Shown here in pieces: positions 41,112-64,000 of a stretch of 64,000 nt of DNA. The notes below the pieces were generated by a model. That model searched no databases and was not told where the DNA came from. It saw only the letters and a program-made list of their open reading frames with translations. This DNA comes from an uncultured Gemmatimonadales bacterium (GTDB taxonomy: Bacteria > Gemmatimonadota > Gemmatimonadetes > Gemmatimonadales > GWC2-71-9). Position 1 is the first letter of the stretch, and every line of letters starts with the position of its first letter. Made by a program: the position numbers and the translations under genes. The stretch is from assembly GCA_963695555.1 (NCBI GenBank), contig CAVOGR010000007.1, forward strand, positions 192,001 through 256,000. The letters run 5' to 3'.

Positions 41112-42481
41112 TACCATCCTGCTCGGCAACGGGGTGGTGGCGACCCCATGCATTTCCGATGAGTCTGCTGAACCACGTATCGTTCCTAACGGCGCGGTCG
41201 TCTGGCGCGGCGATCGGATCCTCGGTGTCGGGCCGGAAGCGAATCTCCGGCGAGAATTTCCCGACGCCGGGTTCATGGACGCCCACGGCGGCCTGATCAT
41301 CCCGGGGCTGATCAACCTGCATCATCACTTCTACTCGGCGCTGGCGCGTGGGCTCGATCCCAACACGCCAATGAAAGATTTCGGCGAGGTGCTGGACCGG
41401 CTGTGGTGGCGGCTCGATCGCGCACTCGACCTGGAAGCGGTGCGGATCTCCGCCCAACTGTCGGCGGCGGATTGCATCCGCTCGGGCTGCACGACGGTGT
41501 TCGACCACCACGCATCGCCGCAACGCCATCGCCGGCAGCCTGGATACGATCGCCGACGCGATGGAAGACGCCGGCCTGTCGGCGGCACTGTGTACGAAGT
41601 CACCGACCGAAACGGGCACGACCAGGCGGTGGCCGGCCTCGACGAGAACCTCCGCTTCGTGCGCCAGCGCCAGCGTCCCGGATTCGCGGTCTCCTGGGGC
41701 TCCACGCGAGCTTCACCCTGCGGGACGAGACCATGAAGCTCGCGGCCGAACGCCGCCAGGACGGCATGGGCTGCCACATCCACGTGGCCGAGGACCCGAT
41801 CGACGTTACCGCGCTCGGAGGAGGCCTTCGGCAGGCGGCCGGTCGAACGGCTGGAGCAGTTCGGGTTGCTCGACTCGCGCTGTCTCATGGCGCACGGCAT
41901 TCACCTGGCCGCCGACGATTACCGCACCATCGCGGCGCACGACGCGGTGATGATCCACAATCCCGAGTCGAACGCCAACAACGGCGTCGGTCGACTTGAA
42001 CGTGGTGGACACTACCGGCTCACGGCTGCCTGGTGGGGCTCGGCACCGACGGGATGTCGTCCGCCGTGCTGCGCGCGCTCCGCTTCGCGTTCCTCACCCA
42101 TCGCGGCCTCCAGCGCGACCCGCTCGAGCGGGTTCCCGGCGCTACCCGACCTGCTCTCGAACAACGCGCGCGTCGCCCGGCGCTTCTTCGACGAGCCCAT
42201 GCTCGGCGAGTTAGCCACCGACGCGCCGGCGGACATCGCGGTGCTCGACGCGCCGCCGCCCACTGCCGATCGAAGCGGGCAACGTGTTCGCCCATCTGGT
42301 CTACGGCGCGAGCGAGGCGCCGGTGCGGCATACCATCGCCCGCGGGCATGTGCTGCTTCAGGACTTCCACCATACCGCCGTCGACACCGAACGCCTGGCC
42401 GCCCGGGCCCGCGAGGCGTCCCCCGCCCTCTGGGACCGGTTTCACGCCTTGCCATGGGGCACTAGCTTTCTCGGCACTTGA
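41104..42481 (+). CDS. ssnA: SsnA-like amidohydrolase (frameshifted)
   Basis: PGLINLHHHFYSALARG, LWWRLDRAL, DHHASP, GLHASFTL, HIHVAE, HNPESNANN, GLGTDG across frames. Confidence 0.82.
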
Positions 42482-42513
42482 TTCCCAGCCACCGGGCCAG
42501 ACGGGTATACCGC

Positions 42514-43985
42514 ATGCCGGCACCAGAGAAGACGACCAAGAGCGAGAAGCGCCGCCGCGCGGTAGCGACATGTCGCGAGCGCGGCATCTTGATCCCGACG
42601 TTCGCCCAGATGCGCGATCCCGATAGCATCGACCCGGTCATCACGGCCAAGCTCTCGCGGCATCGACATGCAGGCGGTGCGATCCGCTCAACCTGTTCCG
42701 CATCACCTGGCACAACGATCCCGAGACCGGCGGCTTCGGGTCGGTCAACGCGCTCGAGCTTCCGCCCGTCGCTGACCGGCGTGCCGGCGCGGATCGTGGG
42801 GCTGGTGGGCGAGCACTTCCCCACCGGCGCCCACAAGGTGGGCGCGGCCTTCGGTTGCCTGGTGCCGCGGCTCGTTTCCGGCGAGTTCGACCCCACCACC
42901 CAACGCGCGGTCTGGCCGTCGACCGGCAACTACTGCCGCGGCGGCGCGTTCGACAGCGCGCTGCTCGGCTGCCATGCGGTGGCCATCCTGCCCGAGGAGA
43001 TGAGCCGGGAGCGGTTCGAATGGCTGGAACAGATCGGCGCCGAGGTCATCGCGACGCCCGGCTGCGAGAGCAACGTCAAGGAGATCTTCGACGCCTGCTG
43101 GGAGATCCGCCGGACCAGCCCCGAGGCGGTGATCTTCAACCAGTTCGACGAGTTCGGGAACTACCTGTGGCATTACGGCGTGACTGGGCCGGCCGCGGAG
43201 GAGGCGTTCCGGCGCCGAAGCGGCCCGGCGACCAGTTCGCCGCATGGGTCGGCGCCACCGGCTCGGCCGGCACACTGGCGACCGGAGACTATCTGAAGCG
43301 CGCACTTCCCGGGTTGCGCCATCACCGCCGCCGAGGCGCTCCAGTGCCCGACCCTGCTACGCAGGCGGGCTTCGGCGGACACCGCATCGAGGGCATCGGT
43401 GACAAGCACGTGCCGTGGATCCACAACGTGCGGAACACCGACCTGGTCACGGCCATCGACGACGAGGCCACCATGCGCCTCATGCGGCTGTTCAACGAGC
43501 CGGCGGGCCACGCGGTGCTGGCGCGCTACGGCGTGCCCGATGCCACCATCGCCGCAGCTTCCGCTCCTCGGCATCTCGAGCATCTGCAACCTGCTCGCCG
43601 CCATCAAGACGGCGCAAGTACTACGAGTTCGACGACGCACGACATGCTGTTCACGTCGTTCACCGATTCGGTGGATCTCTACCGGACCCGCCTGGTCGAG
43701 CTGCAGCGAACAGCACGGGCCGTACACCGAGCTGGCCGCGGCCGATCGACTTCGAGCGCTACCTGCTGGGCACCGCGACGGACCATTTGCGGGAGCTGCG
43801 GTACACCGACCGGAAGGCGATCCACAACTTGAAGTACTTCACCTGGGTCGAGCAGCAGGGCAAGACCGCAGAGGAGCTCGACGCGGTTGTGGAGCCCGGC
43901 GTTCTGGCAGGAACTTGCCGGGCAGCTGCCGGGGCTGGACGAGCAGATCAGGGCGTTCAACAGCGACACCGGACTGGGCAGCTAG
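42514..43985 (+). CDS. PLP-dependent enzyme, fold type II (frameshifted)
   Basis: FPTGAHKVGA, WPSTGNYCRGG, NQFDEFGN, GSAGT, HRIEGIGDKH, LKYFTWVEQQG across frames. Confidence 0.8.
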
Positions 43986-44023
43986 CCGGCCCGGTCGAGA
44001 CAATGAGACGGAGACACGAGAGC

Positions 44024-45269
44024 ATGACTCAGGCGAGTAAGCAGGCTCTGGCCGATGCCGGCCGGTACGAGGCCGACATCGTCGCGTTTCTTGCGGGAGA
44101 TGATCGCCATTCCCGCCGAGAGCCTGAAGGAAGGCGAGCGGTGCGAGCGGGTGCGGACGGAGTATCAGAAGCTGGGCTTCGACGAGGTCTTCTTCGATAC
44201 CCTGGGGAACGTCATCGCCAAGGTCGGCGATGGCCCGCTCACCATACTGATGGACGGCCATATCGATTGCGTGGGCGTGGGCGACCGCGGCGCCTGGGAG
44301 TTCGACCCGTTCGAGGGCAAGCTCGAGGACGGCAAGGTGTGGGGCCGCGGCGCGGTGGACGAGCTGCCGGCCGTGGCCTGCATGGCTTATGCCGCCAAGC
44401 TGATCATGGAACGCGGCCTGCCCAAGGACGTGACGCTCTATTTGTCGGCCACGATCATGGAAGAGGACTGCGACGGCTACTGCCTGTTGCACATGATCGA
44501 AAAGGAGAACATCCAGCCCGACGTGGTGATCATCGGCGAGCCCACAGATTTGAACGTGTATCGCGGGCATAGGGGCCGAGTCGAGATCATGATCCGCACC
44601 AAGGGCGTGTCGGCCCATGCGGCGCATAGCGAGCGCGGGGTGAACGCGCTCTACAAGGCGGCGCGCATCATGCTCGACATCGAGGCGCTGAACCAGCGGC
44701 TCCCGGTGGACGACTTCCTGGGCAAGGGATCGATTGTGGTGTCATCGGTCGAGTGCACTACCGCGTCGCTCAATGCCGTACCGGACAGTGCCACGATCTA
44801 TGTCGACCGCCGCATGACCGCAGGCGAGACGGTCGACGGCGTGCTGGCCGAACTCCGGGCGCTGCCGCAGTTGGGCGACGCCACGGTTGAGGTAATGAAT
44901 TACGATGTGACCAGCTGGCTCGGCGAGCGGGCCCATCAGGAGAAATTCTACCCCACCTGGGTCATGCCCGAGGATCATCCGTTGATCCAGGGTGTGGCGC
45001 ACGCGGTCGAGGCGGTACTCGGTACTCGGCCCAAGATTTCCCGCTGGGGGTTCTCCACCAACGGCGTCGCCAGCATGGGCCGGCACGGCATTCCGACCGT
45101 GGGGTTCGCGCCGGGGCTGGAGGAGCTGGCACACACGACCAAGGAATGGGTGTCGGTGGAAGATCTGGTGAAGGCCACCGCTGTGTACAGCGTCATTCCG
45201 CAATTATTGGCCGAACGCAAGGATCAACTCTTGGCGGCCCCTCAAGGGTCGGAGAAGGTTGGCAGCTAG
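44024..45269 (+). CDS. ygeY: YgeY family M20 metallohydrolase (one frameshift near 44090)
   Basis: DGHIDCVG, GRGAVDE, EEDCDG, RGHRGR, FSTNG. Confidence 0.85.
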
Positions 45270-45272
45270 CCA

Positions 45273-46247
45273 ATGGACAAGAAACTCAAGGGCCGCGACT
45301 TCATCAGTACCCAGGACTGGACCCAGGAGGAGCTCGAGGCCCTGTTCGCGCTGGCGGCGGAGCTCAAGGCGGCGAAGCGCGCAGGGAAGCCCACGCCGAT
45401 GCTCGCGGCCAAGACGCTGTACATGATCTTCTTCGACGCGTCGACCCGCACCCGGAATTCCTTCGAGACCGGCATGACCCAGCTGGGCGGGCATGCCATT
45501 TACCTCTCACCCGACAGGATGCAGATCAGCCACGGCGAGAACGCGCGCGACACGGCCAACGTCCTGTCGCGCTACGGCGACGGCATTGCCATCCGCCACT
45601 GCGCCTACGGCGAGGGCAACAAGTATCTGAACGACGTGGCCAAGCACGCCAGCATCCCGCTGCTCAACATGCAGTGCGACATCTACCATCCGTGCCAGAT
45701 TCTGGCCGACTACCTGACCATCCGGGAGAAGTTCGGCGACACCAAGGGGCTCAAACTCGGCGTGTCGTGGACCAGTGCTCCGAACTACGTGCGGCCGCTC
45801 TCGGTGCCGCAGAGCCTGATCCTGATGATGCCTCGGTTCGGGATCGACGTGACCCTGGCCTACCCGCCCGAGTTCAAGCTCATGCCGCACATCGAGGCGC
45901 AGGCTAAGGCCAACGCCAAGGCGGCGGGGACCAAGTTCGAGATCACTCATGAGTTCGAGGATGCGTTCCGCGACGCCGACGCGGTGGTCCCCAAGTCGTG
46001 GGGCCCGCTGGTCACCACCGAGGACACGAAGCAGGGCTTGGCCCTGATCGAGAAGTACCCCACCTGGCGCACCGGCATGGATCACATGCGGCTCGGCAAG
46101 AAGCACCTGATTTACATGCATCCCCTCCCGGCCGACCGTGGGCGCGAGGTGACCGACGAGGTGATCGACGGGCCGCAGTCGGTGGTGTACGACGAGGCTG
46201 AGAACCGGCTCCATGTGCAGAAGGCGCTCATGGCGCTGACCATGTAG
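45273..46247 (+). CDS. Carbamoyltransferase, YgeW/knotted OTC-like
   Basis: STRTRNSF, HPCQ, MHPLPAD, EAENR; SWTSAPNYVRPLSVPQ segment resembling YgeW-type enzymes. Confidence 0.85.
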   Translation: MDKKLKGRDFISTQDWTQEELEALFALAAELKAAKRAGKPTPMLAAKTLYMIFFDASTRTRNSFETGMTQLGGHAIYLSPDRMQISHGENARDTANVLSRYGDGIAIRHCAYGEGNKYLNDVAKHASIPLLNMQCDIYHPCQILADYLTIREKFGDTKGLKLGVSWTSAPNYVRPLSVPQSLILMMPRFGIDVTLAYPPEFKLMPHIEAQAKANAKAAGTKFEITHEFEDAFRDADAVVPKSWGPLVTTEDTKQGLALIEKYPTWRTGMDHMRLGKKHLIYMHPLPADRGREVTDEVIDGPQSVVYDEAENRLHVQKALMALTM

Positions 46248-46259
46248 CGTGGTGACGTC

Positions 46260-47493
46260 GTGAGCGGCTTTGGGTTTCGCTGCACCGAGTGCGCCAAGGC
46301 GTATGGCGAGGACGACGTCCGGCTGGTGTGTCCCGCCTGCAAAGGGAAGCAGGAGCCCGGCGGCGTTACTCGGGGCGTGCTCGAGGTGGAGATCGATGAG
46401 CTGCCGACCAGTTGGCCCGATGCACCGCCCTCTCATCCCGATTTCCTGACCGCGTTTCTGCCCATCGAGTCGGCGGAGCATTTGCCGCCGCTCCCGGTGG
46501 GCGGCACACCGCTCCTGCCGGTGCCGGAACTGCGTCGCGCGCTCGAGATGCCGCGGCTTTGGCTGAAGGACGATACCCGAAACCCCAGCGGCTCGACCAA
46601 GGACCGGGCATCGCTCCTGGTGGTGGCCAAGGCGCGGCAGTACGGCTACGACACCGTGGCCGCCGCATCCACTGGGAACGCCGCGACCGCGCTCGCGGCC
46701 GTGTCGGCCGCCGCCGGTACACGAGCGATCCTGTTTCGTGCCGGCGGCGGCACCCGAGGCCAAGCTGGTGCAGATGCTGAGCTATGGCGCGACCGTGCTG
46801 CCCATCGACGGCAACTACGACGACGCGTTCGAGCTGTGCCTGGCCGCGTGCGAGGAGTTCGGCTGGTACAACCGGAACACCGCACTCAATCCGTTCACGA
46901 TCGAAGGAAAGAAGACCGCGGGGCTCGAGATCGCGTTGAGTATGGCGCCGGAGGTGCCGGACGCGGTGCTGGTGCCCACCGGCGACGGGGTCATCCTGGC
47001 CGGCGTGGCCAAGGGGTTCGCCGATCTGGTGCGTTCAGGGCTGATCGATCGCATGCCGCGGATGATCGCGGTCCAGCCCGAGGGCGCGGCGGCGATCGTC
47101 ACCGCCCTTAAGGAAGGCAGCGAGACCATCACGCCGGTGCCGGGTGCACACAGCGTGGCCGATTCACTGACTGTCGAGGCGCCGCGGAACGCGCTTCAGT
47201 GCCTCCGGGTCATTCGCGCCTCGGGCGGAAGCGGCGTCGCCGTACCCGACGCCGCTATCCTCGAGGCTATTCCCCGCCTAGCCGGCCTCAGCGGCGTCTT
47301 CGCCGAGCCGTCGGCGGCGGCGGGGTTGGCGGGGCTGGAGGTGGCGGTGGAGGAGGGCTTGGTGGAGCGGGGCGAGCGGGTGGTATTGTTGGTGACCGGC
47401 ACCGGGCTCAAGGACGTACCGGCGGCGGCCCGGGCGGTGGAGCGGCCGGCTACCATAGCACCGAGGTTGGAGGCGGTGGCGGGGCGGGTGTGA
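46260..47493 (+). CDS. Threonine synthase-like PLP enzyme (frameshift near 46735)
   Basis: CxxC..CxxC N-terminus, NPSGSTKDR, ASTGNAA, EGKKT, PTGDG, FAEP, TGTGLKD. Confidence 0.85.
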
Positions 47494-47544
47494 GGCGATT
47501 GTCGGCGGCCGTGGCTCCGTCATCCAGGTCCTACCATCGTTGCA

Positions 47545-51994: not shown

Positions 51995-52230
51995 TAGGAG
52001 ACGTTCGCACCCGATTCCGTGTGACCTGCGTCACAAACAGTCGCGGTTTGCCGGCAGGCGCTTGCGTTCTTCGCAGAGCCAGTAAATTGTGAGGGGAGCG
52101 AACGCATTGGCCGCAGCTGTCGCCAGACTTGGAAGGCGGCGTCGGCACCGCGGCGCGATTCGCTCCACCCCCTGCCGTGTGCGTCCTAGGCCGCGGTCAG
52201 CTCTGTTCTTCTTGCCTGGCGAGGCCCGCG

Positions 52231-52881
52231 GTGATCAGGACGGTTATCGCAAGCGATTTCACCCTCTTTCGCGAGGGCTTGGCGCGCATCTTCGCGTCTG
52301 CCGAGTCGATTGAATTGGTAGGTGTTGCGGGAAACGACATCGACTTGATGACACTCATCACCGAGCGGTCCCCACAGATCGCGGTGGTAGACATGGCAAT
52401 CGCCCGAAGCCGTGACTTGATTGCATGGATCCAGTCGGCTGGTGCAGAAACCGGCGTGGTTGCACTCGGCGTTCGGGAGGTAGAAGAGGAAGTCATCGCA
52501 TGCGCCAGCGCCGGCGTCATGGGCTACGTACCCCGCGACGGCTCGATCGAGGACCTGCTATCAGTGGTGCGAAGTACCGCCAACGGGGAGTTGCTCTGCT
52601 CGCCGAAGATCGCTGGCGCCCTACTCCGTCACGTTGCTACCTTGTCCCAAGCCGGAGCAGCCCTCGGTCCCGAGCCCGAATTGACCGCCCGAGAGCAGGA
52701 AGTTGCGGTCCTCATCGATCGAGGCATGTCTAACAAAGAGATCGCCCGTCACCTGAACATCGAAGTGTCGACGGTGAAGAACCACGTTCACCACCTCCTC
52801 GAGAAGCTAGGGGTCCATCGTCGCTCGCATGCCGCCGCGCGCATCCGGCGGAAGTTATCCTACCGCAAGCTGGTCCGGTAA
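52231..52881 (+). CDS. NarL/FixJ family response regulator (LuxR HTH)
   Basis: Receiver domain plus LTAREQEV..GMSNKEIA..TVKNHVHHLLEKL; GTG start inferred. Confidence 0.92.
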   Translation: MIRTVIASDFTLFREGLARIFASAESIELVGVAGNDIDLMTLITERSPQIAVVDMAIARSRDLIAWIQSAGAETGVVALGVREVEEEVIACASAGVMGYVPRDGSIEDLLSVVRSTANGELLCSPKIAGALLRHVATLSQAGAALGPEPELTAREQEVAVLIDRGMSNKEIARHLNIEVSTVKNHVHHLLEKLGVHRRSHAAARIRRKLSYRKLVR

Positions 52882-52990
52882 CAGAGGAACTACACCTTTC
52901 TCTCCAAGCAACCTCGTCCCAAAATGCATCCAACGATGCATGTTGGGAGTCTTGGGCCCACTCTATTCTTGATGCTGGGCCATCAGCGAC

Positions 52991-53400
52991 GTGCTTACCA
53001 TCCGCGTTCTTGTTACCGGGTTGTCCCGGCTTCGTGGCGACGTGCTTCGACACATCGTCGCCGCGCAACCGGACATGATGCTGCTGGACGAGTTACTGGA
53101 CCCTGACGTCATCCTCTCGGGCGGAGAAACCTTCCTTCCAGACATCGTGATCACCGGCCTAGAAGCTGATTGTGTAACTGCCCCATGCACTGCCCTGCTG
53201 TACTTCGATCACCATCTCGAGGTGCTGGCGCTCAGTGGGGAGACGGGAGAGGGCGTCCTCTTCAGAGCCGGCCACCCCAGGATGTCGCTGGGACGGCTAT
53301 CCACTGAGGGCCTACTCGATGTCATTCGCCACGCACCACCAGCGCGTTCTGCGCCACATCCCGACGAGGATCTAGATCCAGTTCTGAACCCAAAATGGAC
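52991..53400 (+). CDS. Degenerate receiver-like protein (in frame with the downstream precursor; end uncertain)
   Basis: IRVLVTGLSRLRGDVLRHIVAAQPDM..PDIVIT resembles a receiver fold; N-terminal part of ORF 52991..54265. Confidence 0.45.
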
Positions 53401-53572
53401 TCTATGGCCCATTGAGCACCTTACAGACGAGGCCCATATTGAGCGTCAGTTCCATGCGCTACCGTCAGCAGAGACTGCGCGCGCCGGGGCCGCACGTGAG
53501 GCCCGATCGACTCGCGCAGGCTCTGTACTTCGTCTTGGCACTTCTAACACGCAGTGGGAGGCGCGACTCGCC

Positions 53573-54265
53573 ATGACCGACAAAGAACAACTCAAGTTCT
53601 GGCGCGAGCTGAGAAACCTCCGCGACCGCATCCAACAAGACCCCAGGCTGTACCGGAAGTTCCAGGAGAACCCAACCGAGATTTTCCAGCAGTTTGAGCT
53701 CGATGTGGAGGTACCCGCGGGCCCATTGGGGAAAGAGGGCCGCCGGCTATCCGACTACCTTGACGCGCTCCGCCCGGAAGAACGACCGATCGTCGCGGAG
53801 TCGTTGCTCGAGTTGAGCGTCGCGGATGATATCGGGAAAGTCGCGATCGCACTCGCACTCGCGAATGCAGTCGCCCTGGCCAATGCAGCCGCCAACGCCA
53901 ATGCAGCCGCCAACGCCAACGCAGGGGCCAACGCAAACGCCGGGGCAAACGCCAACACCAATACGAATACGAGTGGGGTGGGGATTGGAGATCTGGTGGC
54001 AAATCCGTGGGCACGCATGGTCCTGGCCTCTGATTTCGCCGAGTCTGCGCTGGCCCGCACGCTGGCCGACCTACACTTGAATCCGGCCCGCCAGAGCGCG
54101 TTGCTCAGGCGTGTGCTGACCGATGACGAGAGTGTTCTGAGTTCCAAGGTGGTCGGCGATGCGGAGTTCCGACTCGCACAGTACTCCTTCCGCGGTACGG
54201 TATTCCAGGTTGAGGGGTTGCTTCGAGGTGACGTGATCGAGGTCGTCAACACCCGGCTCATGTAG
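53573..54265 (+). CDS. RiPP precursor 1: NHLP-like leader, internal Ala/Asn core, C-terminal follower domain (230 aa)
   Basis: GGGAGG RBS; RIQQDPRLYRKFQENPTEIFQQFELDV leader-like segment; core VAIALALANAVALANAAANANAAANANAGANANAGANANTNTNT; directly upstream of maturases. Confidence 0.8.
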   Translation: MTDKEQLKFWRELRNLRDRIQQDPRLYRKFQENPTEIFQQFELDVEVPAGPLGKEGRRLSDYLDALRPEERPIVAESLLELSVADDIGKVAIALALANAVALANAAANANAAANANAGANANAGANANTNTNTSGVGIGDLVANPWARMVLASDFAESALARTLADLHLNPARQSALLRRVLTDDESVLSSKVVGDAEFRLAQYSFRGTVFQVEGLLRGDVIEVVNTRLM

Positions 54266-54300
54266 CGGAGTCGACCACACTCCGAGATGCAAGAACCGCG

Positions 54301-56262
54301 ATGGCATCCGCGCGGGAGAATCGGTCGTTTATGGGATCTGGACGGGGTAATCTGCTGCTGCTCCACATGCCGATGGCTGCGCCGAACCTGCCGAATCTGG
54401 CCATCGAGCAGCTCGCGCAGATTCTTCGCCGTGCCGGATTCCGGTGCGACGTCTCCTACCCGAACCTGCGGCTTCCCCGCTCCGTCAGCGCCCGACTCGT
54501 CCACGGCCTTCCCGGACCCGCGATCTTCGCACCCCACCGGTTCCGCATTCCTGCAGAGCAGGTGGCGGACGCGGTGGCCGCAGAGCTCAACCGCATTGCC
54601 CAGGCCGCCGGACTGTCTCGGCCAGATACTTACGACGACACCGCCACCGAGTACCTCCTGGGCATCGAAGCGGCAGGGCAGTGTCTGGACGGCACGTTGG
54701 CCGCGATTCCCGTGGGTAGCTACGACGCCATCGGCTTCTCAGTGATCTTCGATGCCCAGAAGCTGCCCTCTTGCGCCTTAGCGCATCGCCTGAAACAGCG
54801 TGAGCCTCGGATTCGGGTGCTTTTCGGCGGGACAGGTTGCGACGGGGAAATGGGCGCGGCATTGCTCGAACACTTCCCAGAGGTCGACGCGGTGCTTCAA
54901 GGCGAGGCCGATAGGACCGTTGTAGCTGCGTTCGATGCCCTGTTGGACGGTGAACTGGAAACCGTGCCCGGGCTTCTGTATCGTGATGGCGACGAGATCC
55001 TGCGTTCTTCCGTACCCGAGGATGAGCCGCCGCTTATCGGGGACGTGGTGCCAGACTATGCCACCTTCGTCGAGCAACGATCCGCCAGCGCATATCGTGA
55101 CGAACCCCTCGTTCTCTTCTACGAGGCGTCACGTGGCTGCTGGTACGGTCGCAAACAGCATTGCAACTTCTGCGGAATCAAGAACGTCGACGGGGCATAC
55201 CGAGAGAAGGCGCCGGACGCACTCCTCCAAGAGATGCTCTCGCTGTCGAAGCGCTACGATCCGGAAACCCTATACGCGACCGATGCAATCCTGAGCCGAC
55301 AGCATATCAGCACGGTGCTCGCGGACATAGCTACGATGCGCCAGGTCGGATTGAGGCTGCCTGCCTTGTTTTTTGAAACCAAATCGAACCTGAAACCCGA
55401 AGAGATCGGACTTCTCGCCGCTGCCGGCACCAAACAAATGCAACCGGGAATCGAGAGTTTTAGCACCAACACCCTGCGTTTGATGCGCAAGGGTGCAACC
55501 ATGTTACAGCAACTCTCTTGTCTCAAGTGGTCCCGTGCGTACGGCGTCGAGTTGGTATACAGTATTCTCACCGGTACCCCCGGAGAGTCCGATGCCGACC
55601 GCGACGCCATGGCCGCGCTAATGGAGCATCTGCACCACCTGCCACCACCATATCAGACCAATCGACTCGGGCTACACCGTTTCAGCCCATACTTCAAGGA
55701 CTCAGCTGCGTTCGGGATCACCGACGTTCGTCCGTTTGCGCTGCAGAAGACCATCTATCAGACCGAGAACGTCGACCTGTTGTGCCGACTCTGCTATGAG
55801 CTGGAGTACAGCCTTGAGCCTGAAGTGGTACCGATCGGACCAGGAAGCATGGAACGTCTGTCCGAGGCGGTCAGGCGATGGCGTGAAGCGTACTTTGCCG
55901 GCTGTAGGATGGTGGTCCGACCACTCGCCGGAGGTGCCATAGTGATCCGAGCCATCGCCGATCAGGGTCCAAGGATCGACCGATATGAAGGAGTGGACGC
56001 AACCGTGCTCCTCGAAGCGGGGACGGTCGTTGGGATCGGGACGTTGGCCCGCCGCATTGGTGTGCCGGAGGCCGAGGTCGACGCGGCGGCCACGAGGCTC
56101 GAATCGCTCCACCTTCTCGTCAGGGAGGAGCGCAACCTTCTGGCACTGCCGGTGCCCCCGGCAGAGCCATGGAGGCCGCGATCCCCTCGAGCCACCCGCG
56201 ATGTTGACGCCCCCGCCCAACCCGAGGTGCTCGTTCAGGCGCGGGCCGACGCGCCGTGCTAG
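54301..56262 (+). CDS. B12-dependent radical SAM C-methyltransferase, RiPP maturation type (PoyB/PoyC-like)
   Basis: MPMAAPNLPNLAI, FGG..C.GEMG, GEAD, EASRGCWYGRKQHCNFCG (Cx7Cx2C), QPGIES, LMRKG, RFSPYF. Confidence 0.9.
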   Translation: MASARENRSFMGSGRGNLLLLHMPMAAPNLPNLAIEQLAQILRRAGFRCDVSYPNLRLPRSVSARLVHGLPGPAIFAPHRFRIPAEQVADAVAAELNRIAQAAGLSRPDTYDDTATEYLLGIEAAGQCLDGTLAAIPVGSYDAIGFSVIFDAQKLPSCALAHRLKQREPRIRVLFGGTGCDGEMGAALLEHFPEVDAVLQGEADRTVVAAFDALLDGELETVPGLLYRDGDEILRSSVPEDEPPLIGDVVPDYATFVEQRSASAYRDEPLVLFYEASRGCWYGRKQHCNFCGIKNVDGAYREKAPDALLQEMLSLSKRYDPETLYATDAILSRQHISTVLADIATMRQVGLRLPALFFETKSNLKPEEIGLLAAAGTKQMQPGIESFSTNTLRLMRKGATMLQQLSCLKWSRAYGVELVYSILTGTPGESDADRDAMAALMEHLHHLPPPYQTNRLGLHRFSPYFKDSAAFGITDVRPFALQKTIYQTENVDLLCRLCYELEYSLEPEVVPIGPGSMERLSEAVRRWREAYFAGCRMVVRPLAGGAIVIRAIADQGPRIDRYEGVDATVLLEAGTVVGIGTLARRIGVPEAEVDAAATRLESLHLLVREERNLLALPVPPAEPWRPRSPRATRDVDAPAQPEVLVQARADAPC

Positions 56263-57361
56263 TCCTCCGTCCGCGACAGCTCACGGTGCTCGCCACCAGC
56301 AACTGCACAGCTACGTGCAGCCACTGCTCGATGCAATCCGCGCCGGGACGTCGGGAGTACCTGACGTTCGCTCAAATGCGCCAAGCAATCGACGAGCTGC
56401 ATACGCTGAGTCCGCTTCGCGTTGTGATCTTCGCCGGCGGCGAACCTACACTCCTCGGCGAGGCACTGCTCGATGCGATCGCGTACGCCGATGGGCTCGG
56501 CATCCTGACCCGCTTGGTTACGAACGCGTATTGGGCCACCAATCCGGCGCGCGCGCGCGCACGCCTCATAGCGTTTCGGGAAGCGGGCCTTCGTGAACTC
56601 AACTTGAGTGCGGACGACCAACATCTTCCCTTCGTGCCATTCGAGCGAATCGAATATGCTTGGCATGCCAGCAAGGGCCTGGGGTTTCAGGCGGTCATCA
56701 TCGCCAACTGCTCAGGCCCGCGGAGCCGCGTCACCCCGTCCTACATCGAAGACCGTCTTGGGGAATCCTTGGTAAGACGATTCGATGAGGATGGATCACC
56801 GCTTCCCCTCGCTGCCCCGGCACCGGATGGCACCGTGTACGGCCTGTCCAACGCGCTATTTGCAGCGACTGGGCCGCGGCAAAGACTTACCGGATCAGGA
56901 TTTGATCTTCCCCGACACAGAAGAGGCGCTGAACACCCCGTGCCCCTGGGCCGTGCGTAGTGCAGCATTGTCCCCCTCCAATCACCTCGTCGCCTGCTGC
57001 GGTATCGAGGCCGAGGGAAATCCCGTACTCGACTTCGGTTCGGCCTCGGAGATGTCGGTCACAACGCTCGTAAACCGAGCGGACAATAGCCTCCTCGTCA
57101 ATGCAATCGCCCTGCTTGGACCCGTCTATCTGAAGCGATTTCTGACGGAGCGCGCGCCGGAGATCGCGTGGCGGCCTCGCTACAGTAGTGTGTGTGAAGT
57201 GTGTGAGCATCTGGTCACTCGTCCAGAGGTCACTTGGTGCCCTCCGCTCTCACTCGGCCGAACTTGCCCTTCAACTCCTACCCGTGCGCGACGCACTGGA
57301 GGAGGTCGCTCCCGCGGATGCGGAAACCTCAGATGCTTATCACCTCACAGGCACCTACTGA
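56256..57361 (+). CDS. Radical SAM enzyme, putative peptide epimerase (PoyD-like); frameshifts near 56855 and 57235
   Basis: CTATCSHC, FAGGEP, VTNAYWA, LSADDQH; C-terminal CPW..ACCG..CEVC in the next frame. Confidence 0.75.
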
Positions 57362-58429
57362 ACTCGAAGGCGGCTCCCTAGGCCGGCTGGGCGACGAACT
57401 GCAGCACACTGGCTATGCTGAGTTCTGCTCCACGTTCTTCCCGCTTGCACCACGGCTGGAACACTGGATCGAACATCGGGACGACGCACCCCAGGAGCTG
57501 CGAAGCCTGGTCGATCTCTTTCTCCTGGCGCAGCCAACGAGCTATGACGACTTGCCACGCGGACTACGCGCGGTCGTGGAAGCGCTTGTGGAAATCGGGA
57601 TTCTGGTTGACAGAACGGATGGGATGGTCAGTACGCCTGGCCTGGTCGCTGCTGCCCGTGTTCGGCTACTGGCTCTTTTTCCAGAAACCAACCCGGAATC
57701 CAGCACTCTACTTCGGCGATGACTCCGTAGCCCTGGCCTGCCGCATCCGCCCACGCCACGGGGGGAGCACGCTGGACCTGTGCGCCGGTCCTGGCATTCA
57801 GTCCCTGGTGGCAAGCGGCATCAGCGGTTCAGTGACGGCCGTGGAAATCAACCCAGCCGCGGCCGAGATCGCGAAATTGAACGTCATGATTAACCGTCGC
57901 GACGATCGGATTTCAGTACTCACCGGGGACTTGTATGAACCCCTCTCACCTGACCTGCGGTACGATCACGTAGTAGCAAATCCACCCCTCTTACCCGTGC
58001 CAAGGAACATGCAGTATCCCTTTGTCGGCGACGGGGGACCGGACGGCCTCACCGTGACGCGACGTATCCTCTCCGGACTGCCAACTAGGCTCCACCCGGC
58101 CGGCACCGCGCAGATAATCGGTACCTGTCTCAGCGATGGGATCTTGCCGTTCGCTGCCGACGAGATGGCCGAATGGACCCGTAGAACGGATATGGACCTT
58201 CGGATGACTGTGGCCGCGCACGTCCCGCTTTCCCCTGGTACCCCGATGTTTCAAGGGCTGGTCGAGACGGCTGGCGGACCGGATTTGGCGGAATCCTTCG
58301 CGTCGTTTCTTGCTGCGCGAGCGCGCCGGGTACTTGGCAACCTTCTTTCTGCATGTGAGGTGGGGTCAGGGACGTTTCACGGTACAAGACATGTCCAGGG
58401 ACGGACATGCCGGACTCTGGTTCGTCTGA
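57318..58429 (+). CDS. SAM-dependent N-methyltransferase (PoyE-like Asn side-chain methyltransferase candidate); frameshifts near 57647 and 58322
   Basis: YFGDDS, LDLCAGPGIQ, VEIN, GDLYEP, VANPP, GGPDGL; GGAGGAGG RBS. Confidence 0.78.
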
Positions 58430-58480
58430 CATGGCCGGGGCAGCGTGCCCCGCGCGAACGAGCAATGGGAGAGGATCATC

Positions 58481-60045
58481 ATGGCTGACGTGACGGATGG
58501 AGCGGAAGGACGTGGCGCACCTCGAATCAAGCGTGACAATTTCGTCGCGAGAATCGTGACCGACCCAGAGCGCCCGGTCGGCGCACTTGTGGTTGGCGGG
58601 TACATCGGTGACGCAGCCGAAGACTCAGCGCTGCGCATCTACTTCGACGCTTCGCTGACCAGCTTTCTGGATATCGAGAAGCAAGACGTTCTTGCTTTCA
58701 AGGAGGTGCCCGAACGCGTCGATCCCCTGGGATCTACAATTCTGTGGCTCGCGCGTGACGCCAGTGTGAAGTACGGCCTGACCGAGCCAAAGCCTGGTCT
58801 TGGTGCTGCAGTGACAGCCACTGTATCGGAGCCACCACCTCCACCTCCGCCGACGGTGACACTCCCTCTGACCCCCACCTTGACAAATTATGGGGGGACC
58901 TGGGGCCCGACTCGGTCCCAGCCCAGCTGGCCGACGCACCCGACGGTGCCCGCCGCCGACCTGGCCCACGGCAACCCACCGTGCCCACGCGGACGACGAC
59001 GCCGCCGACCATGTCGCAACCGAGCTGGCCCACCCAACCGACGGCCACCCCGCCGACCTGGCCCACGGAACCCACCGTGCCCACGCGGACGATGACGCCG
59101 CCGACCATGTCGCAGCCCAGCTGGCCCACCCAGCCCACGGCCTCACCCCCGACCTGGCCTACGGCACCGACGATGACCCCGCCGACCATGTCGCAGCCCA
59201 GCTGGCCCACCCAGCCCACGGCCTCACCCCCGACCTGGCCTACGGCACCGACGATGACCCCGCCCACCATGTCGCAACCCAGCTGGCCCACCCAGCCCAC
59301 GGCCTCACCCCCGACCTGGCCCACGGCACCGACGATGACCCCGCCGACCATGTCGCAGCCCAGCTGGCCTACCCAGCCCACGGCCTCACCGCCGACCTGG
59401 CCCACGGCACCGACGATGACCCCGCCCACCATGTCGCAGCCCAGCTGGCCTACCCAGCCCACGGCCTCACCCCCGACCTGGCCCACGGCACCGACGATGA
59501 CCCCGCCGACCATGTCGCAGCCCAGCTGGCCTACCCAGCCCACGGCCTCGCCGCCGACCTGGCCCACGGCACCGACGATGACCCCGCCGACCATGTCGCA
59601 GCCCAGCTGGCCTACCCAGCCCACGGCCTCGCCGCCGACCTGGCCCACGGCACCGACGATGACCCCGCCCACCATGTCGCAGCCCAGCTGGCCTACCCAG
59701 CCCACGGCCTCACCGCCGACCTGGCCCACGGCGCCGACGATGACCCCGCCCACCATGTCGCAGCCCAGCTGGCCCACCCAGCCCACGGCCTCACCGCCGA
59801 CCATGTCGCAACCCAGTTGGCCCACGGAACCCACCGTGCCCACCCGCACGATGACGCCGCCCACGATGTCGCAACCCAGCTGGCCGACGCAACCGACGGC
59901 CACGCCGCCCACGATGTCACAACCCAGCTGGCCCACCCAACCAACGGCCACACCGCCCACGATGACCCCGCCGACCATGTCGCAACCGACGGTCACAATC
60001 ATCCCTACGGGCCCGGGGCATTGGGGATGGGGATGGCAGTGGTGA
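58481..60045 (+). CDS. RiPP-like precursor 2: globular N-terminal domain plus long Thr/Ser/Pro repeat region (~520 aa after correcting two apparent insertions at ~58950-58975)
   Basis: GGAGAGGA RBS; DNFVARIVTDP..GYIG..RIYFD..WLARDA domain; repeat text starts in frame 58445 and continues in ORF 58981..60045. Confidence 0.75.
59101..59800 (+). repeat. 81-bp coding tandem repeat, 8 full units plus a partial unit, with degenerate flanking units (58910-59990)
   Basis: Unit starts at 59101, 59182, 59263 etc.; encodes TMSQPSWPTQPTASPPTWPTAPTMTPP. Confidence 0.95.
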
Positions 60046-60111
60046 TTTGCTCTGCGGCTGAACAAGCTACCGCCGAGGCACCCATGTATCGCGCCTGAGA
60101 GGGAGAGGTTA

Positions 60112-61282
60112 TTGCACTTCAGTTGCCCGGGACTTGTTCAATACCTTCTCGAGACGGGCTGGCTCACAAGAGCCAGCCTAGTCCGGGCTATGCTCGAGAT
60201 CGTTCCCGTTGGACGACGCAATCGAAATTTCCGCGTGATGATCGGAAAGTCGGGGGGCCTTTTCGTTAAGCAGATTCAACGCGACGAGGTCTGCTGCGTG
60301 GCACACTGTGCGGCGTGAAGCACTCTTCTATCGTGAAGTGGCAGCACGGGAGCCACTGAAGGAAATGCGCCCGCTTGTGCCCCGCTTCTTGGGATGGGAT
60401 GCCGAACGAAGTACGGTCATCACCGAACTTGTCGAAGAGGCACAGACACTCCTCGCCGTCTCAGGGCAACCAGGGCAACATCGTTTTGCGATGATTGGCC
60501 GCACATTGGCTGCGGTCCACGGTTCGCGGGATGCGCTGAGCCGAGAGCAATCCTTGCACCAAGAGCTTGAGAATCGGGTACCTTGGATCCTGGACCTTGC
60601 GATGAATCCCTCCGCATTCATCCGAATTGGTGGGGGCGACATGATTACGTTCCTGGCGCTCCTGGAGGAGTATCCAGCCTTATTGAAGTGGCTAGGCCAC
60701 GCGCGGTCCGCGTGGGTTTGCGATGCCTTTATTCATGGCGACCTGCGCTGGGACAACATTCTCCTCGTCTCGAAGAACGGCTATTCCTCAAGGGTGGTTT
60801 TCGCGGATTGGGAACTATACGATCTTGGGGACTCTGCCTGGGATATCGCGACCATCATCAGAGATGCTTTGTTGATCGAGTTCTTTCAGCCAGGCTCCCT
60901 TCGGGCCCGCGGCCCCGCGATCCCGGCGCTGCTGGCAGCCTATCTCGATTGCCGGCCGGCACTGCGGCCAGACTTTGGCCAGTGGCGCTCTCGGGTAGTC
61001 ATCTACGCTGTCACTCAGTTGTGTCTTGCTGCGTTCGAGCAGCTCGCCGCTCGCGTCCGTGCTGGCAATGAGGTGCGGGCTTTAGTGGGTTGGGCGGATC
61101 AGCTTGGTCGTTCGACTGAGAGCGCTCGACTGGGTCTTCCCGGATGTCCGAGTCCCTTAGTCGCGCGGCTATCCGCCAGGCGATCACGTGGGTCCTCCGG
61201 GATCTACGGTTGTATCCCGCTGCCTTCATGCTGCGGGGCCGAGCCTACCCGTTGCCCCCCCAGCCAGGAGATCATTTACTAG
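60112..61282 (+). CDS. APH-family phosphotransferase (class V lanthipeptide-type kinase); frameshift near 60300, true end possibly near 61150
   Basis: RRNRNFRV..LFVKQ, RREALFY, IHGDLRWDNIL, DWE..GD.AWDIA. Confidence 0.82.
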
Positions 61283-62142
61283 CGCTCCGCGCGGCCCTTC
61301 AGCAAGTACTGTACGAGGTCTGTTACACCCGCCTATTGTCTGACTCCACATTCGACCAGTGGCGACCCAGTACCACGTCGGATGCCGACAATGGGTTCAC
61401 CGAAGTGTTGGCTCAGGCTGTCGGAGGGGCCCCGCGCTGGGAAGGGGGGTGGCGCGCAGCGAGCTCACCTGGGCCCGAAGGCATTTGGCTCACGAAACGT
61501 GAAACCTGTCGATGGGCCCAGACAGGCCACTACCTTCCAAGTTCGGAGGCCGGCCTCGATGGATACATTTGGCTTCTGATTCACCGTGAATGGCGGCACC
61601 CACTGCCCGGCTTCTACTTCATCAATGGAAGGACTCCAGGCGACGAGTGGGACGAGGCGCACCCGGCACGTTTCTACCTTCATACGCGCGCATCAACGGC
61701 AGTTGCCGTGAGCGAAATAGTCGTGAAGTTGCTGGACACCTACGAGGTCCCGTTCCGTTTCAAGACGCTGAACGTGGCATCCATGTACGATCGAGCCGAC
61801 GCTAGCGTGCTCTACGTTGGAACACAGCACGCTGCCGTCGTCGAGCGGCTTTTGCGGTATGCTTTCGCGAACGGGTCAAGCCGATGGCTGGACGAATCAG
61901 TCCCACTATTTACCATGTGCATCATTCCTGGGGTTGGGTTCGCCGTGGACCCGGGTACGGGAGAAAGCTTCGGTACAGACAGATGCAGGATCCTCGCCGA
62001 AGGAATCCTTGACGCTTGGCAAACCGGCGATACATCCGTCGATGGACGCTGGAGCGCAGTGGAAGCCAGATTCGCTGCCGTGGGTGTCGATTTGGATCAC
62101 GCATATCTCGGCGTTGATCAGGCCTCGTGGTTCGAATGCTAA
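61144..62142 (+). CDS. HopA1-like protein (class V lanthipeptide-type phospho-lyase)
   Basis: PGFYF, RFYLH, PFRFK, RADASVLYV, PLFT, GESFGTDRCRILAEG. Confidence 0.82.
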   Translation: MSESLSRAAIRQAITWVLRDLRLYPAAFMLRGRAYPLPPQPGDHLLALRAALQQVLYEVCYTRLLSDSTFDQWRPSTTSDADNGFTEVLAQAVGGAPRWEGGWRAASSPGPEGIWLTKRETCRWAQTGHYLPSSEAGLDGYIWLLIHREWRHPLPGFYFINGRTPGDEWDEAHPARFYLHTRASTAVAVSEIVVKLLDTYEVPFRFKTLNVASMYDRADASVLYVGTQHAAVVERLLRYAFANGSSRWLDESVPLFTMCIIPGVGFAVDPGTGESFGTDRCRILAEGILDAWQTGDTSVDGRWSAVEARFAAVGVDLDHAYLGVDQASWFEC

Positions 62143-62930
62143 GAGGCGCTCTGTCCCCGGCAGCGTCTCTGGAGGTGGCCACCCGCATCGGGCGGCGGCT
62201 GTGCCGGGATGCCATCTGGGACCACGATTGCTGTACTTGGCTCGGGTGGCAACCCCCGAACGAGAGCGCGGACATGGTCCCCGTCTACGGCGCGTGTGGA
62301 GGTGGATTCTATGATGGAACCGCCGGCATCGGCTGCTTCCTGCAGCATTTGAGTCAAGCGAGCCCGGATCCGCTTGTCCGTCTCACAGCGGACGGCGCTG
62401 TCCGTCAGGCCATCGGGATCGATACCGCGGCCATCCCAATATTTCCAGGTTCTCGCAGGCCTCAGGGCTCTCACCGGACAACTGTCGTTGACGCTCTTGC
62501 TGTCCTCCGTTGGAGTCTGAAAGAGACCGAGTCAGTTGGCGAGGGGGGAATCTGCAACGAGGAGATTCGCCACGCTGCTCAGTTGCTCATAGACCACCTC
62601 GGCTTCAGCCTTCAGCAGAGTTGGCTCCCGGCTTCGATGTTCGATGGGTGGTGTGGCGTCGCCGATGCGCTGCTCCTGTATGAGTGCCACAATCCAAACG
62701 CCGGTGCTAAATCCGTTGTCGAAGCAGTAGCAGCAAAGGCATACACGGTCCACGAACAATGGGGAATTCCCTGGCCCTGCGGCGGACCTGGAGGCGCCGA
62801 GACCCCCGACCTCTTACACGGCCTCGCCGGAATCGGGTGGTGCTATCTACGACTTGCCGATCCGCTGGCCGTGCCTTCGCCGTTTGCCCTGGTGGCCGGG
62901 AGGGAGAACGCGCCTGAAGGAGATAAATAG
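62127..62930 (+). CDS. Short LanC-like protein lacking CHG zinc motifs
   Basis: IGRRLCRDAIW..CTW, YDGTAGIG, WPCG..ETPDLLHGLAGIG..YLRL. Confidence 0.72.
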   Translation: MVRMLRGALSPAASLEVATRIGRRLCRDAIWDHDCCTWLGWQPPNESADMVPVYGACGGGFYDGTAGIGCFLQHLSQASPDPLVRLTADGAVRQAIGIDTAAIPIFPGSRRPQGSHRTTVVDALAVLRWSLKETESVGEGGICNEEIRHAAQLLIDHLGFSLQQSWLPASMFDGWCGVADALLLYECHNPNAGAKSVVEAVAAKAYTVHEQWGIPWPCGGPGGAETPDLLHGLAGIGWCYLRLADPLAVPSPFALVAGRENAPEGDK

Positions 62931-63256
62931 TGATTAGACTGCTGACTTTCGCACTTCCCGCGCTCTTTGTGCTGGCGGGCATTCCGCTTCGTCTCGGATG
63001 GGTTCCGCCTAACCGCTGGTACGGCTATCGGACGGCGCTCACGTTTCGCAATCCGGACGTATGGTACTCGGTGAACCGGGAGCTGGGTGTTGCCATGCTG
63101 GTCGCCGGTGTGCTGGGCCTCGCGGTTGGAGTGGCTCTGCTTCGACTCGCCCCGACCTGGCGCGGAGAGACCAGGCTTCTCGTGAGCATCATCAGCCAGA
63201 GTCTCCTGCTGTTTGCGGCGCTGTTGATTGTGGTGCTCAGAACTCAGCGTATATGA
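62930..63256 (+). CDS. SdpI family immunity protein
   Basis: VPPNRWYGYRT..W..NR signature; three TM helices. Confidence 0.85.
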   Translation: MIRLLTFALPALFVLAGIPLRLGWVPPNRWYGYRTALTFRNPDVWYSVNRELGVAMLVAGVLGLAVGVALLRLAPTWRGETRLLVSIISQSLLLFAALLIVVLRTQRI

Positions 63257-63263
63257 CAGGCGA

Positions 63264-64000
63264 TCACGGCGCCGCGACGTCCAGAATCCATCGCCCCAGT
63301 TCGGTCGTCACAGTGGCAGAGATCCGCCGCCGCCGGTCACCGTATGAGGCAAACCCGGAGGAATTGGTTACATGCCGCAGCAGATGGTCATGGTGAGGGA
63401 GCAATATCAAACGGCCTTTCAGGCCTGCGGCGCGGGCCGCGCGAAGAAGCAGGTGTGCATCCGCGACGGTTACCTGCAGGTCCGCCTTGCCTTGCAGGAT
63501 GAGGACAGGGCACCGGACAGCACCCAGCAGGTGCAAGGGATCGCGAACGTCGAGGCTTCGGTACCAGCGCCGAAGGTGCCGGAGCAGCACCAGCCCAGCC
63601 GGGACCCGGCCGGAAGTCCAACGAGGTGATCGCCGAGCGTGATAAAACAACTCCCGTACCTCCGCCTGTCTATGAGCAAGCCATTCCGAACCCAAACGAA
63701 GCTTGCGGGCCTGTATCGCAACCTGCTCCAGCAAAACAGACTCAATCGGACGACCCGCAGTGGCCAGCAGGGCCAAGCCGGCTACATTCCGATTTCTGCC
63801 GGCGACTTCCATTGCAAGCAGCCCCCCTTCACTGTGTCCGATCAAGAACGTAGGAACGCCCTGCACTTCCTGCCGCGAGCGAAGAACTGCAAACGCTGCA
63901 CGGGCCCGTGCCAACAACGATTCAAATCGTGGTTCCTCTGCAACCTCGAGCGTCTTCTCATATCGAAGGGTAGCGATACCCGCAGGCGCGAGTCGATTCG
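63264..64000 (-). CDS. Alpha/beta hydrolase (5' end probably outside the window)
   Basis: GHSEG nucleophile elbow, ILQGKADLQV, HDH; upstream frame reads like RYEKT.. Confidence 0.82.
   Translation of the reverse strand, partial: NRLAPAGIATLRYEKTLEVAEEPRFESLLARARAAFAVLRSRQEVQGVPTFLIGHSEGGLLAMEVAGRNRNVAGLALLATAGRPIESVLLEQVAIQARKLRLGSEWLAHRQAEVRELFYHARRSPRWTSGRVPAGLVLLRHLRRWYRSLDVRDPLHLLGAVRCPVLILQGKADLQVTVADAHLLLRAARAAGLKGRLILLPHHDHLLRHVTNSSGFASYGDRRRRISATVTTELGRWILDVAAP

Follow-up and report, generated by a model that had tools for sequence, protein, structure and literature searches.

Architecture of the precursor locus

The window, meaning the whole 64,000-nucleotide stretch of DNA analysed here, encodes a three-part RiPP precursor followed by genes for two methyltransferases, a radical SAM epimerase, an SdpI-family membrane protein and, on the opposite strand, an alpha/beta hydrolase (Table 1). 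A purine-rich, ribosome-binding-like site is located 5' of the precursor at 53556-53561, and no sigma-70-like promoter was found at 52800-54400. Immediately upstream of the precursor lie a regulator of LuxR/NarL type and another receiver-like ORF (52129-53400), which likely control the precursor cluster.

Table 1. Features of the precursor cluster, in positions of the window.
Feature	Position	Strand	Basis
RiPP precursor of 230 aa with leader, Asn/Ala core and DUF5969 follower	53573..54265	+	ORF, DUF5969 match, homologue searches
Helical leader, residues 1-89, weakly NHLP/LigA-clan-like	53573..53839	+	Structure model; weak profile and PDB matches
Core, residues 90-133	53840..53971	+	Hydrophobic first 14 residues, then two period-6 Asn ladders; boundaries inferred
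DUF5969 (PF19394) follower, folded: strand, two helices, four strands	54011..54262	+	Profile match and model
Helix predicted to dock the epimerase (residues 170-186); Arg173, Gln174 and Leu177 near-invariant	54080..54130	+	Homologous-pair complex model mapped to window; conservation
B12 radical SAM C-methyltransferase, intact	54301..56262	+	TIGR03975, 421 bits (cut-off 282)
EpeE/YydG-type radical SAM epimerase, twitch domain	56256..57361 (end approximate)	+	Split over three frames, with breaks near 56860 and 57230
AerE/PoyE-like Asn side-chain N-methyltransferase	57318..58429 (start approximate)	+	Split over three frames, with breaks near 57645 and 58295
SdpI-family membrane protein, likely immunity	62930..63256	+	PF13630, 47.5 bits; recurs across loci
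Alpha/beta hydrolase, 524 aa, candidate protease	63264..64000, past window to about 64838	-	Rhizobium-cluster counterpart

The first 89 residues of the precursor are modelled as a small helical leader with weak PDB matches to LigA/SonA (E 0.02-0.1). The profiles TIGR04509 and NF038399 match weakly in 5 of 18 aligned family members (best E 8e-05), and no NHLP match was found in the protein of the window. At the other end, residues 147-229 match DUF5969 with 46.5 bits (cut-off 25) and are modelled confidently, with pLDDT above 90. The Atlas gave a DUF5969 cluster (0.83) as the sole match and none after skipping DUF5969, and a word-limited search found no free-standing short follower. With 97 residues C-terminal to it, including DUF5969, the core is not at the precursor C-terminus. 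The likeness to PoyA and AerA drawn in an earlier note on this DNA goes only so far in this respect, as the core is internal, between the leader and a folded follower that had been overlooked.

Translation of the core interval on the forward strand reproduces the 44 residues quoted in the earlier note, whose description of them is borne out. Asn is found at odd positions only (9, 15, 19, 21, 25, 27, 31, 33, 37, 39, 41 and 43), each of the 22 even positions holds Ala (19 times) or Thr (3 times), and charged residues are absent. The Asn residues form two ladders, 9-15-21-27-33-39 and 19-25-31-37-43, with Asn 41 extra. All 12 share one parity, as did 6.5e-5 of 200,000 shuffles, and none of the 200,000 shuffles reached the nine N-x5-N pairs held by the core. 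The genome has 18,178 frames of at least 100 aa from stop to stop, and such an Asn segment occurs in one of them, the precursor's own. The first 14 residues are hydrophobic (GRAVY 2.39) and the last 30 polar (GRAVY -0.54 before modification); the core has no N-terminal Thr, and the placement of both its ends is putative. AlphaFold renders the core as a low-confidence helix, which is meaningless for a D/L peptide.

The asparagine register and gene neighbourhood across the family

A word search returned 17 homologues and a profile search 206 representative clusters (E up to 0.001; 150 of the 206 listed); the search profile included the core, and the relatives are not independent. Among the matches listed, leader and follower are both present in 116 of the 175 sequences collected. 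Dropping 17 of these 116 (15 near-duplicates and two mis-split rows) left 99 cores, 76 with at least four Asn and 23 with fewer. In the 76 cores, 788 of 810 Asn lie on one parity and 60 cores are perfect, compared with a mean of 0.61, a maximum of 0.63 and at most four perfect cores in 1,000 shuffles. Asn recurs at i+6 with a frequency of 0.77, at i+12 with 0.66 and at i+2 with 0.50, while the other even lags give 0.44-0.50 and the odd lags 0.01-0.02. The earlier note had named loss of the Asn register among homologous proteins as one outcome that would count against its prediction, and the register is conserved. The double ladder, by contrast, is not peculiar to this copy: among the 72 cores with at least five in-register Asn, two filled faces are the commonest state (37 cores), ahead of one (25), three (9) and none (1). 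The Asn blocks total 2,360 residues, 41 of them charged; single blocks span 19 to 50 residues (5th-95th percentile), the shortest being too short alone to cross a bilayer.

The DUF5969 precursor family is widespread yet patchy, and it was absent from the 400 other genomes of the same phylum that were searched. A single match among 60 relatives, short, of low complexity and lying in a 1,212-aa frame, was rejected as a family member. Scans of collections for the Asn/Ala pattern were swamped by low-complexity matches and are read as at least one locus each. The 23 cores with fewer than four Asn among the 99 are Val/Ala-rich, and some members (P0061, P0063, P0066, P0044 and P0104) have leaders in duplicate, a second core or a long extension at the N-terminus.

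An epimerase and a methyltransferase lie 3' of the precursor in all four other DUF5969 loci of sufficient length (L005, L006, L008 and L009), two of which were found through the epimerase and are hence not independent. Furthermore, an SdpI or DUF1648 gene is present in three of three complete DUF5969 loci and in Thermus (SdpI at L006, L008 and L010; DUF1648 at L009). In the accessible text of PMC2910880, SdpI of B. subtilis is a toxin immunity protein and most of its relatives are putative. The recurrence of SdpI-type immunity genes beside the cluster suggests an antibacterial, membrane-acting product, one that targets bacteria.

On the Rhizobium leguminosarum Vaf10 plasmid the order is SdpI, precursor, B12 enzyme, epimerase, methyltransferase and hydrolase, the last being a full-length counterpart of the hydrolase in the window (30% identity over 530 aligned positions). 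The B12 methyltransferase ORF of the Rhizobium plasmid locus, as read from the sequence, ends early at a transposase-like ORF (L006:10727-13272). Elsewhere, the order is precursor, epimerase and methyltransferase (L005) or S8 protease, precursor and the start of a B12 enzyme (L001). The Klebsiella and Collinsella loci, found via the epimerase, hold follower-bearing precursors (E 2e-12 and 2e-24 to the follower profile) as well as a methyltransferase and an SdpI or DUF1648 gene. On Klebsiella plasmid pmk4 (L008:5862-14990) the leader has an end of double-glycine type, and the cluster encodes an HlyC-like acyltransferase, HlyD, an ABC exporter that contains a peptidase and a 562-aa protein without a Pfam match, which points to a variant that is acylated and exported. 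In Collinsella aerofaciens (L009:5418-9179) the cluster is reduced to four genes, namely a DUF1648 membrane protein, the precursor, the epimerase and the methyltransferase, with no protease or exporter found in it; an unrelated PqqD/rSAM cluster lies just upstream. Among plasmid records, 20 carry the epimerase, four of these 20 the methyltransferase too, and all four of the latter an Asn-alternating precursor. Three further plasmid records have the methyltransferase without the epimerase, and no precursor was seen at the methyltransferase-only locus L011.

On plasmid pTA14 of Thermus aquaticus (L010:2599-3504), the same epimerase type, SdpI and the methyltransferase adjoin a precursor variant that lacks DUF5969, has an N-terminus like that of twin-arginine lipoproteins and carries an alternating Asn core rich in aromatic residues. 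Right past the hydrolase, at L007:2848-3780, a 310-aa ORF has no Pfam match at E 0.05 and appears aldo-keto-reductase-like by reading. In the window, a class V lanthipeptide-like cassette at 58445-62930 (a Thr/Pro repeat protein, an LxmK-like kinase, a HopA1-type lyase and a short LanC-like gene) splits the cluster between the methyltransferase and the SdpI/hydrolase genes and could act on the Thr/Ser end of the core. As a stand-in for PoyF in the core system it was rejected, being missing from the complete loci L006, L008, L009 and L010.

Maturation enzymes and predicted docking to the follower

The best family of the epimerase is TIGR04078 (YydG), at 63 bits against a cut-off of 300 for a scan of the N-terminal piece only. 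An intact homologue, modelled at pLDDT 96, matches EpeE over its full length (TM 0.70-0.81, E 1e-18, 18-19% identity), with the next-best enzyme match at E 1e-8, and no close PDB entry was found for the epimerase. The twitch cysteines are invariant in all 65 aligned homologues and present in the pieces encoded in the window. More specifically, a Cys pair aligns with Cys222/Cys223 of EpeE (after a 25-residue tag offset, counted by hand), and the C-terminal CxxC is shared; Cys223 is described as the H-atom donor of EpeE in excerpts of PMC13012085. Proteusin epimerases are portrayed in the available parts of PMC13012085 and PMC8326336 as having no twitch cluster, the PoyD/AerD type containing a single cluster plus an RRE at the C-terminus. 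The epimerisation expected in the earlier note is in keeping with a radical SAM epimerase adjacent to the precursor; judged by alignment and model, the enzyme belongs to the epipeptide lineage and is of EpeE/YydG type, not PoyD/AerD type. EpeE itself inverts two residues only, Val and Ile, according to excerpts of PMC13012085, and about 20 inversions, including Asn, are an extrapolation from these two.

The N-methyltransferase, which is likewise adjacent and fits the Asn N-methylation foreseen in that note, has AerE as its best PDB match (7rc2) and keeps the equivalents of AerE Tyr137, Asp141 and Asn231. Phe234 of AerE is replaced by Leu in the window and in all four plasmid homologues read. 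According to the accessible portions of PMC9060474, AerE methylates D-Asn only and needs Tyr137, Asp141, Asn231 and Phe234, its Phe234Ala variant being nearly inactive. From a D-Asn-requiring enzyme beside a parity-locked Asn core we infer that Asn parity is D parity, and this is our strongest argument. The C-methylation of Val and Ile foreseen in the earlier note is supported by the adjacent TIGR03975 enzyme; yet this B12 C-methyltransferase occurs in only two of five other DUF5969 loci and is optional in the family, making Val/Ile methylation an add-on.

Conservation of the follower is concentrated in one helix, with Arg173 at 97%, Gln174 at 82%, Ala176 at 74% and Leu177 at 86% (n=115). To model its contact with the epimerase, the P0013 follower was folded with the P0186 epimerase, a metagenomic pair presumed cognate from the equal length of their contigs, and not the proteins of the window. 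The docking score was 0.81, against 0.02 for the best of three controls; the docking mark is attained by 116 of 157 solved complexes and by 2 of 215 mismatched pairs. Runs have no less than 60% of their contacts in common, and partner pLDDT is at least 76. In the model, the follower helix with the invariant Arg and Leu faces epimerase residues 72-84, 108-111 and 141-143, and the epimerase of the window is at the family consensus in 13 of 17 interface positions. Recall of a solved complex is unlikely, as a PDB sequence search gave no DUF5969 structure. Speaking against the docking, conservation of the interface on the epimerase fails to separate follower-bearing from follower-less systems: three follower-less relatives keep 6-7 of the 17 consensus positions versus 7 of 17 in Collinsella. 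As modelled, the helix carrying Arg173 probably binds the outer face of the epimerase, substituting for the RRE absent from this enzyme type.

Proposed product, alternatives and known systems

Starting from the observed architecture, Asn register, gene content and catalytic residues, we propose that a leader-core-follower precursor is converted by a docked EpeE-type epimerase and AerE-like methylation into a polytheonamide-like beta-helix that damages bacterial membranes, an explanation to which, as a whole, we assign a probability of roughly 0.55. The follower is predicted, with good probability, to hold the RRE-less EpeE-type epimerase during the inversion of alternate core residues. The odd, Asn-bearing positions, at most 20 residues without counting Gly, would very probably be inverted to D and their Asn N-methylated, with the AerE-like enzyme capping D-Asn after epimerisation. 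On balance, the B12 enzyme would add C-methyls to Val, Ile and Thr here, and it seems rather probable that leader and follower would be cut off by the hydrolase or by host proteases. The 44-mer is slightly favoured to form a helix of roughly six residues per turn, clamped by its two Asn ladders, that would insert with its hydrophobic N-terminus and cause a cation leak against which SdpI would protect the producer. By analogy with polytheonamide, it would make about seven turns, with its two Asn ladders on the outside, an anchor formed by the hydrophobic N-terminus and a polar remainder. In the accessible parts of PMC11285071 and PMC10849128, the N-methyl-Asn chains of polytheonamide stabilise the helix, and excerpts of PMC9060474 describe epimerised, methylated AerA as unstructured in polar solvent. 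Channel formation, based on this analogy, appears to be the least secure step.

An unlikely but sizeable alternative is confined to the product: an epimerised and methylated core that forms no transmembrane channel but acts at the membrane surface, serves as an epipeptide-like envelope-stress signal or forms stacked fibres. The polarity of the last 30 residues, the three Asn faces of 9 of the 72 cores, the existence of short cores and an epimerase of epipeptide lineage would fit it, but the hydrophobic N-terminus, the near absence of charge and the combination of a six-residue period with an N-methyltransferase, the helix stabilisers of polytheonamide in the accessible text of PMC11285071, favour the helix. 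Less probable still is that the follower is not removed and the product is a modified small protein, its D/L core tethered to a folded domain. The Collinsella cluster is without a protease, protease type varies among loci (S8, peptidase-ABC exporter, alpha/beta hydrolase), and PoyJ, a comparable hydrolase, failed to cleave PoyA (PMC9505594); against this, in 58 of the 72 cores the last Asn has a Gly no more than four residues behind it, with a variable linker thereafter, and the Klebsiella precursor, with its double-glycine-type leader end, is encoded beside a peptidase-containing exporter. We consider it very improbable that the follower is a RelE/BECR-type RNase payload carried into target cells by the D/L core. 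Compared by structure, residues 139-230 match toxin chains of contact-dependent-inhibition or toxin-antitoxin systems in all of the first nine places (Z 5.0-7.8), the best RelE/BECR matches reaching Z 7.1-7.8 with an rmsd of about 3 Å over 78-81 residues. However, Z under 8 may reflect a common arrangement, Foldseek gave no match with E below 0.001, and no soluble immunity gene recurs. Moreover, the catalytic residues of RelE/BECR RNases are located on the sheet. The conserved residues of the follower lie not there but on one helix, which is also the predicted epimerase interface, and, judged by sequence conservation, no polar sheet residue is conserved in at least 50% of 115 sequences.

Unrelated proteins also carry Ala/Asn repeats, as seen in circumsporozoite matches and at locus L003, and the core might in principle be a low-complexity linker with no special chemistry; with a register kept across the family, a segment unique in the genome and syntenic enzymes, we regard this as the most improbable reading of all. 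A different doubt concerns this copy alone. The epimerase and N-methyltransferase genes, which the earlier note had paired with the precursor for co-expression, are in place, but in this assembly each is broken by two frameshifts. These four breaks in neighbouring genes, together with intact rpoB, rpoC and gyrA, would be expected if the family worked as described while this copy was decaying and made no modified peptide, a situation compatible with the explanation preferred here. The assembly has patches of indel errors, however: ileS, the fourth essential gene examined, is divided among several frames (G000:C1:1038142-1040587), and metabolic genes at 41100-47500 also look split. The split ileS and the 76-78% identity of the epimerase pieces to the intact homologue, with all catalytic Cys kept, make assembly error likelier than decay; the frameshifts are probably assembly errors, and decay is unlikely.

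Returning to the beta-helical reading, the system's likely mode of action resembles that of polytheonamide-type proteusins, but its product is assembled along another route. With polytheonamide and aeronamide (PoyA-F, AerA-F) it shares an uncharged core of small residues with N-x5-N Asn, an AerE-like N-methyltransferase, a B12 rSAM C-methyltransferase, an alpha/beta hydrolase, as with PoyJ, and, weakly, an NHLP-clan-like leader shape. It differs in its internal core followed by a folded DUF5969, its twitch-type epimerase in place of the PoyD/AerD type, a conserved gene set without the PoyF/AerF dehydratase, a core without N-terminal Thr, denser Asn (one to three ladders) and an SdpI-type immunity gene. 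Two features of proteusins, a C-terminal core and a PoyD-type epimerase, are thus absent. The epipeptide system of Bacillus subtilis (EpeX/EpeE) has the same epimerase fold, Cys222/223, C-terminal CxxC and lack of an RRE, as well as antibacterial membrane activity, the likely role here. In contrast, EpeE is 18-19% identical and inverts two residues of a short secreted peptide, and the epipeptide system has ABC-type immunity and neither an Asn methyltransferase nor a follower domain. No short EpeX-like precursor, EpeP or EpeAB was found among the neighbours scanned, and the precursor here is a three-part protein of 230 aa. Bottromycin, among the follower-guided RiPPs, likewise has a precursor region C-terminal to the core, according to excerpts of PMC11285071. 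Unlike bottromycin, the precursor described here combines an 85-residue folded follower with an 89-residue leader.

So-called origamins, made by Opg enzymes, are reportedly peptides with many D-residues and N-methyl-Asn, produced by a distinct rSAM epimerase and an Asn methyltransferase. They could be the DUF5969 precursor family or a neighbour of it; if they are the same family, its chemistry is known already and follower docking remains the new part. In the literature searched, which included few subscription journals, we found no description of the DUF5969 precursor family, of follower docking of the epimerase, or of origamin or OpgD.

Tentatively, and at slightly less than even odds, DUF5969 precursors may represent an independent route to polytheonamide-like D/L beta-helical membrane channels. 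On this route their own folded docking domain, which may be a RelE-like fold put to a new use, would keep an RRE-less EpeE-type epimerase attached while it makes about 20 alternating inversions; the roughly 200 sequence clusters, found from rhizobia to Collinsella of the gut, would then amount to a natural collection of antibacterial channels bearing between one and three Asn ladders. Such a route would assign a function to the uncharacterised domain DUF5969 and reverse the usual recognition logic, in that the substrate rather than the enzyme bears the folded recognition module. Should the follower prove portable, it would be a tag that recruits an epimerase to any fused peptide. The natural variants, differing in ladder number, in length (about 20 to 60 residues) and in the presence of C-methylation, would make questions about beta-helical channels testable, and the family is available in culturable hosts with as few as two enzymes. 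The EpeE lineage would also be extended past its single characterised product. A Streptomyces canus plasmid (L013:3286-5053) shows a further type of precursor for this enzyme lineage: there, a distant EpeE-like enzyme is encoded after a 229-aa protein whose leader is weakly similar and whose Val/Ala/Phe-rich core has no Asn.
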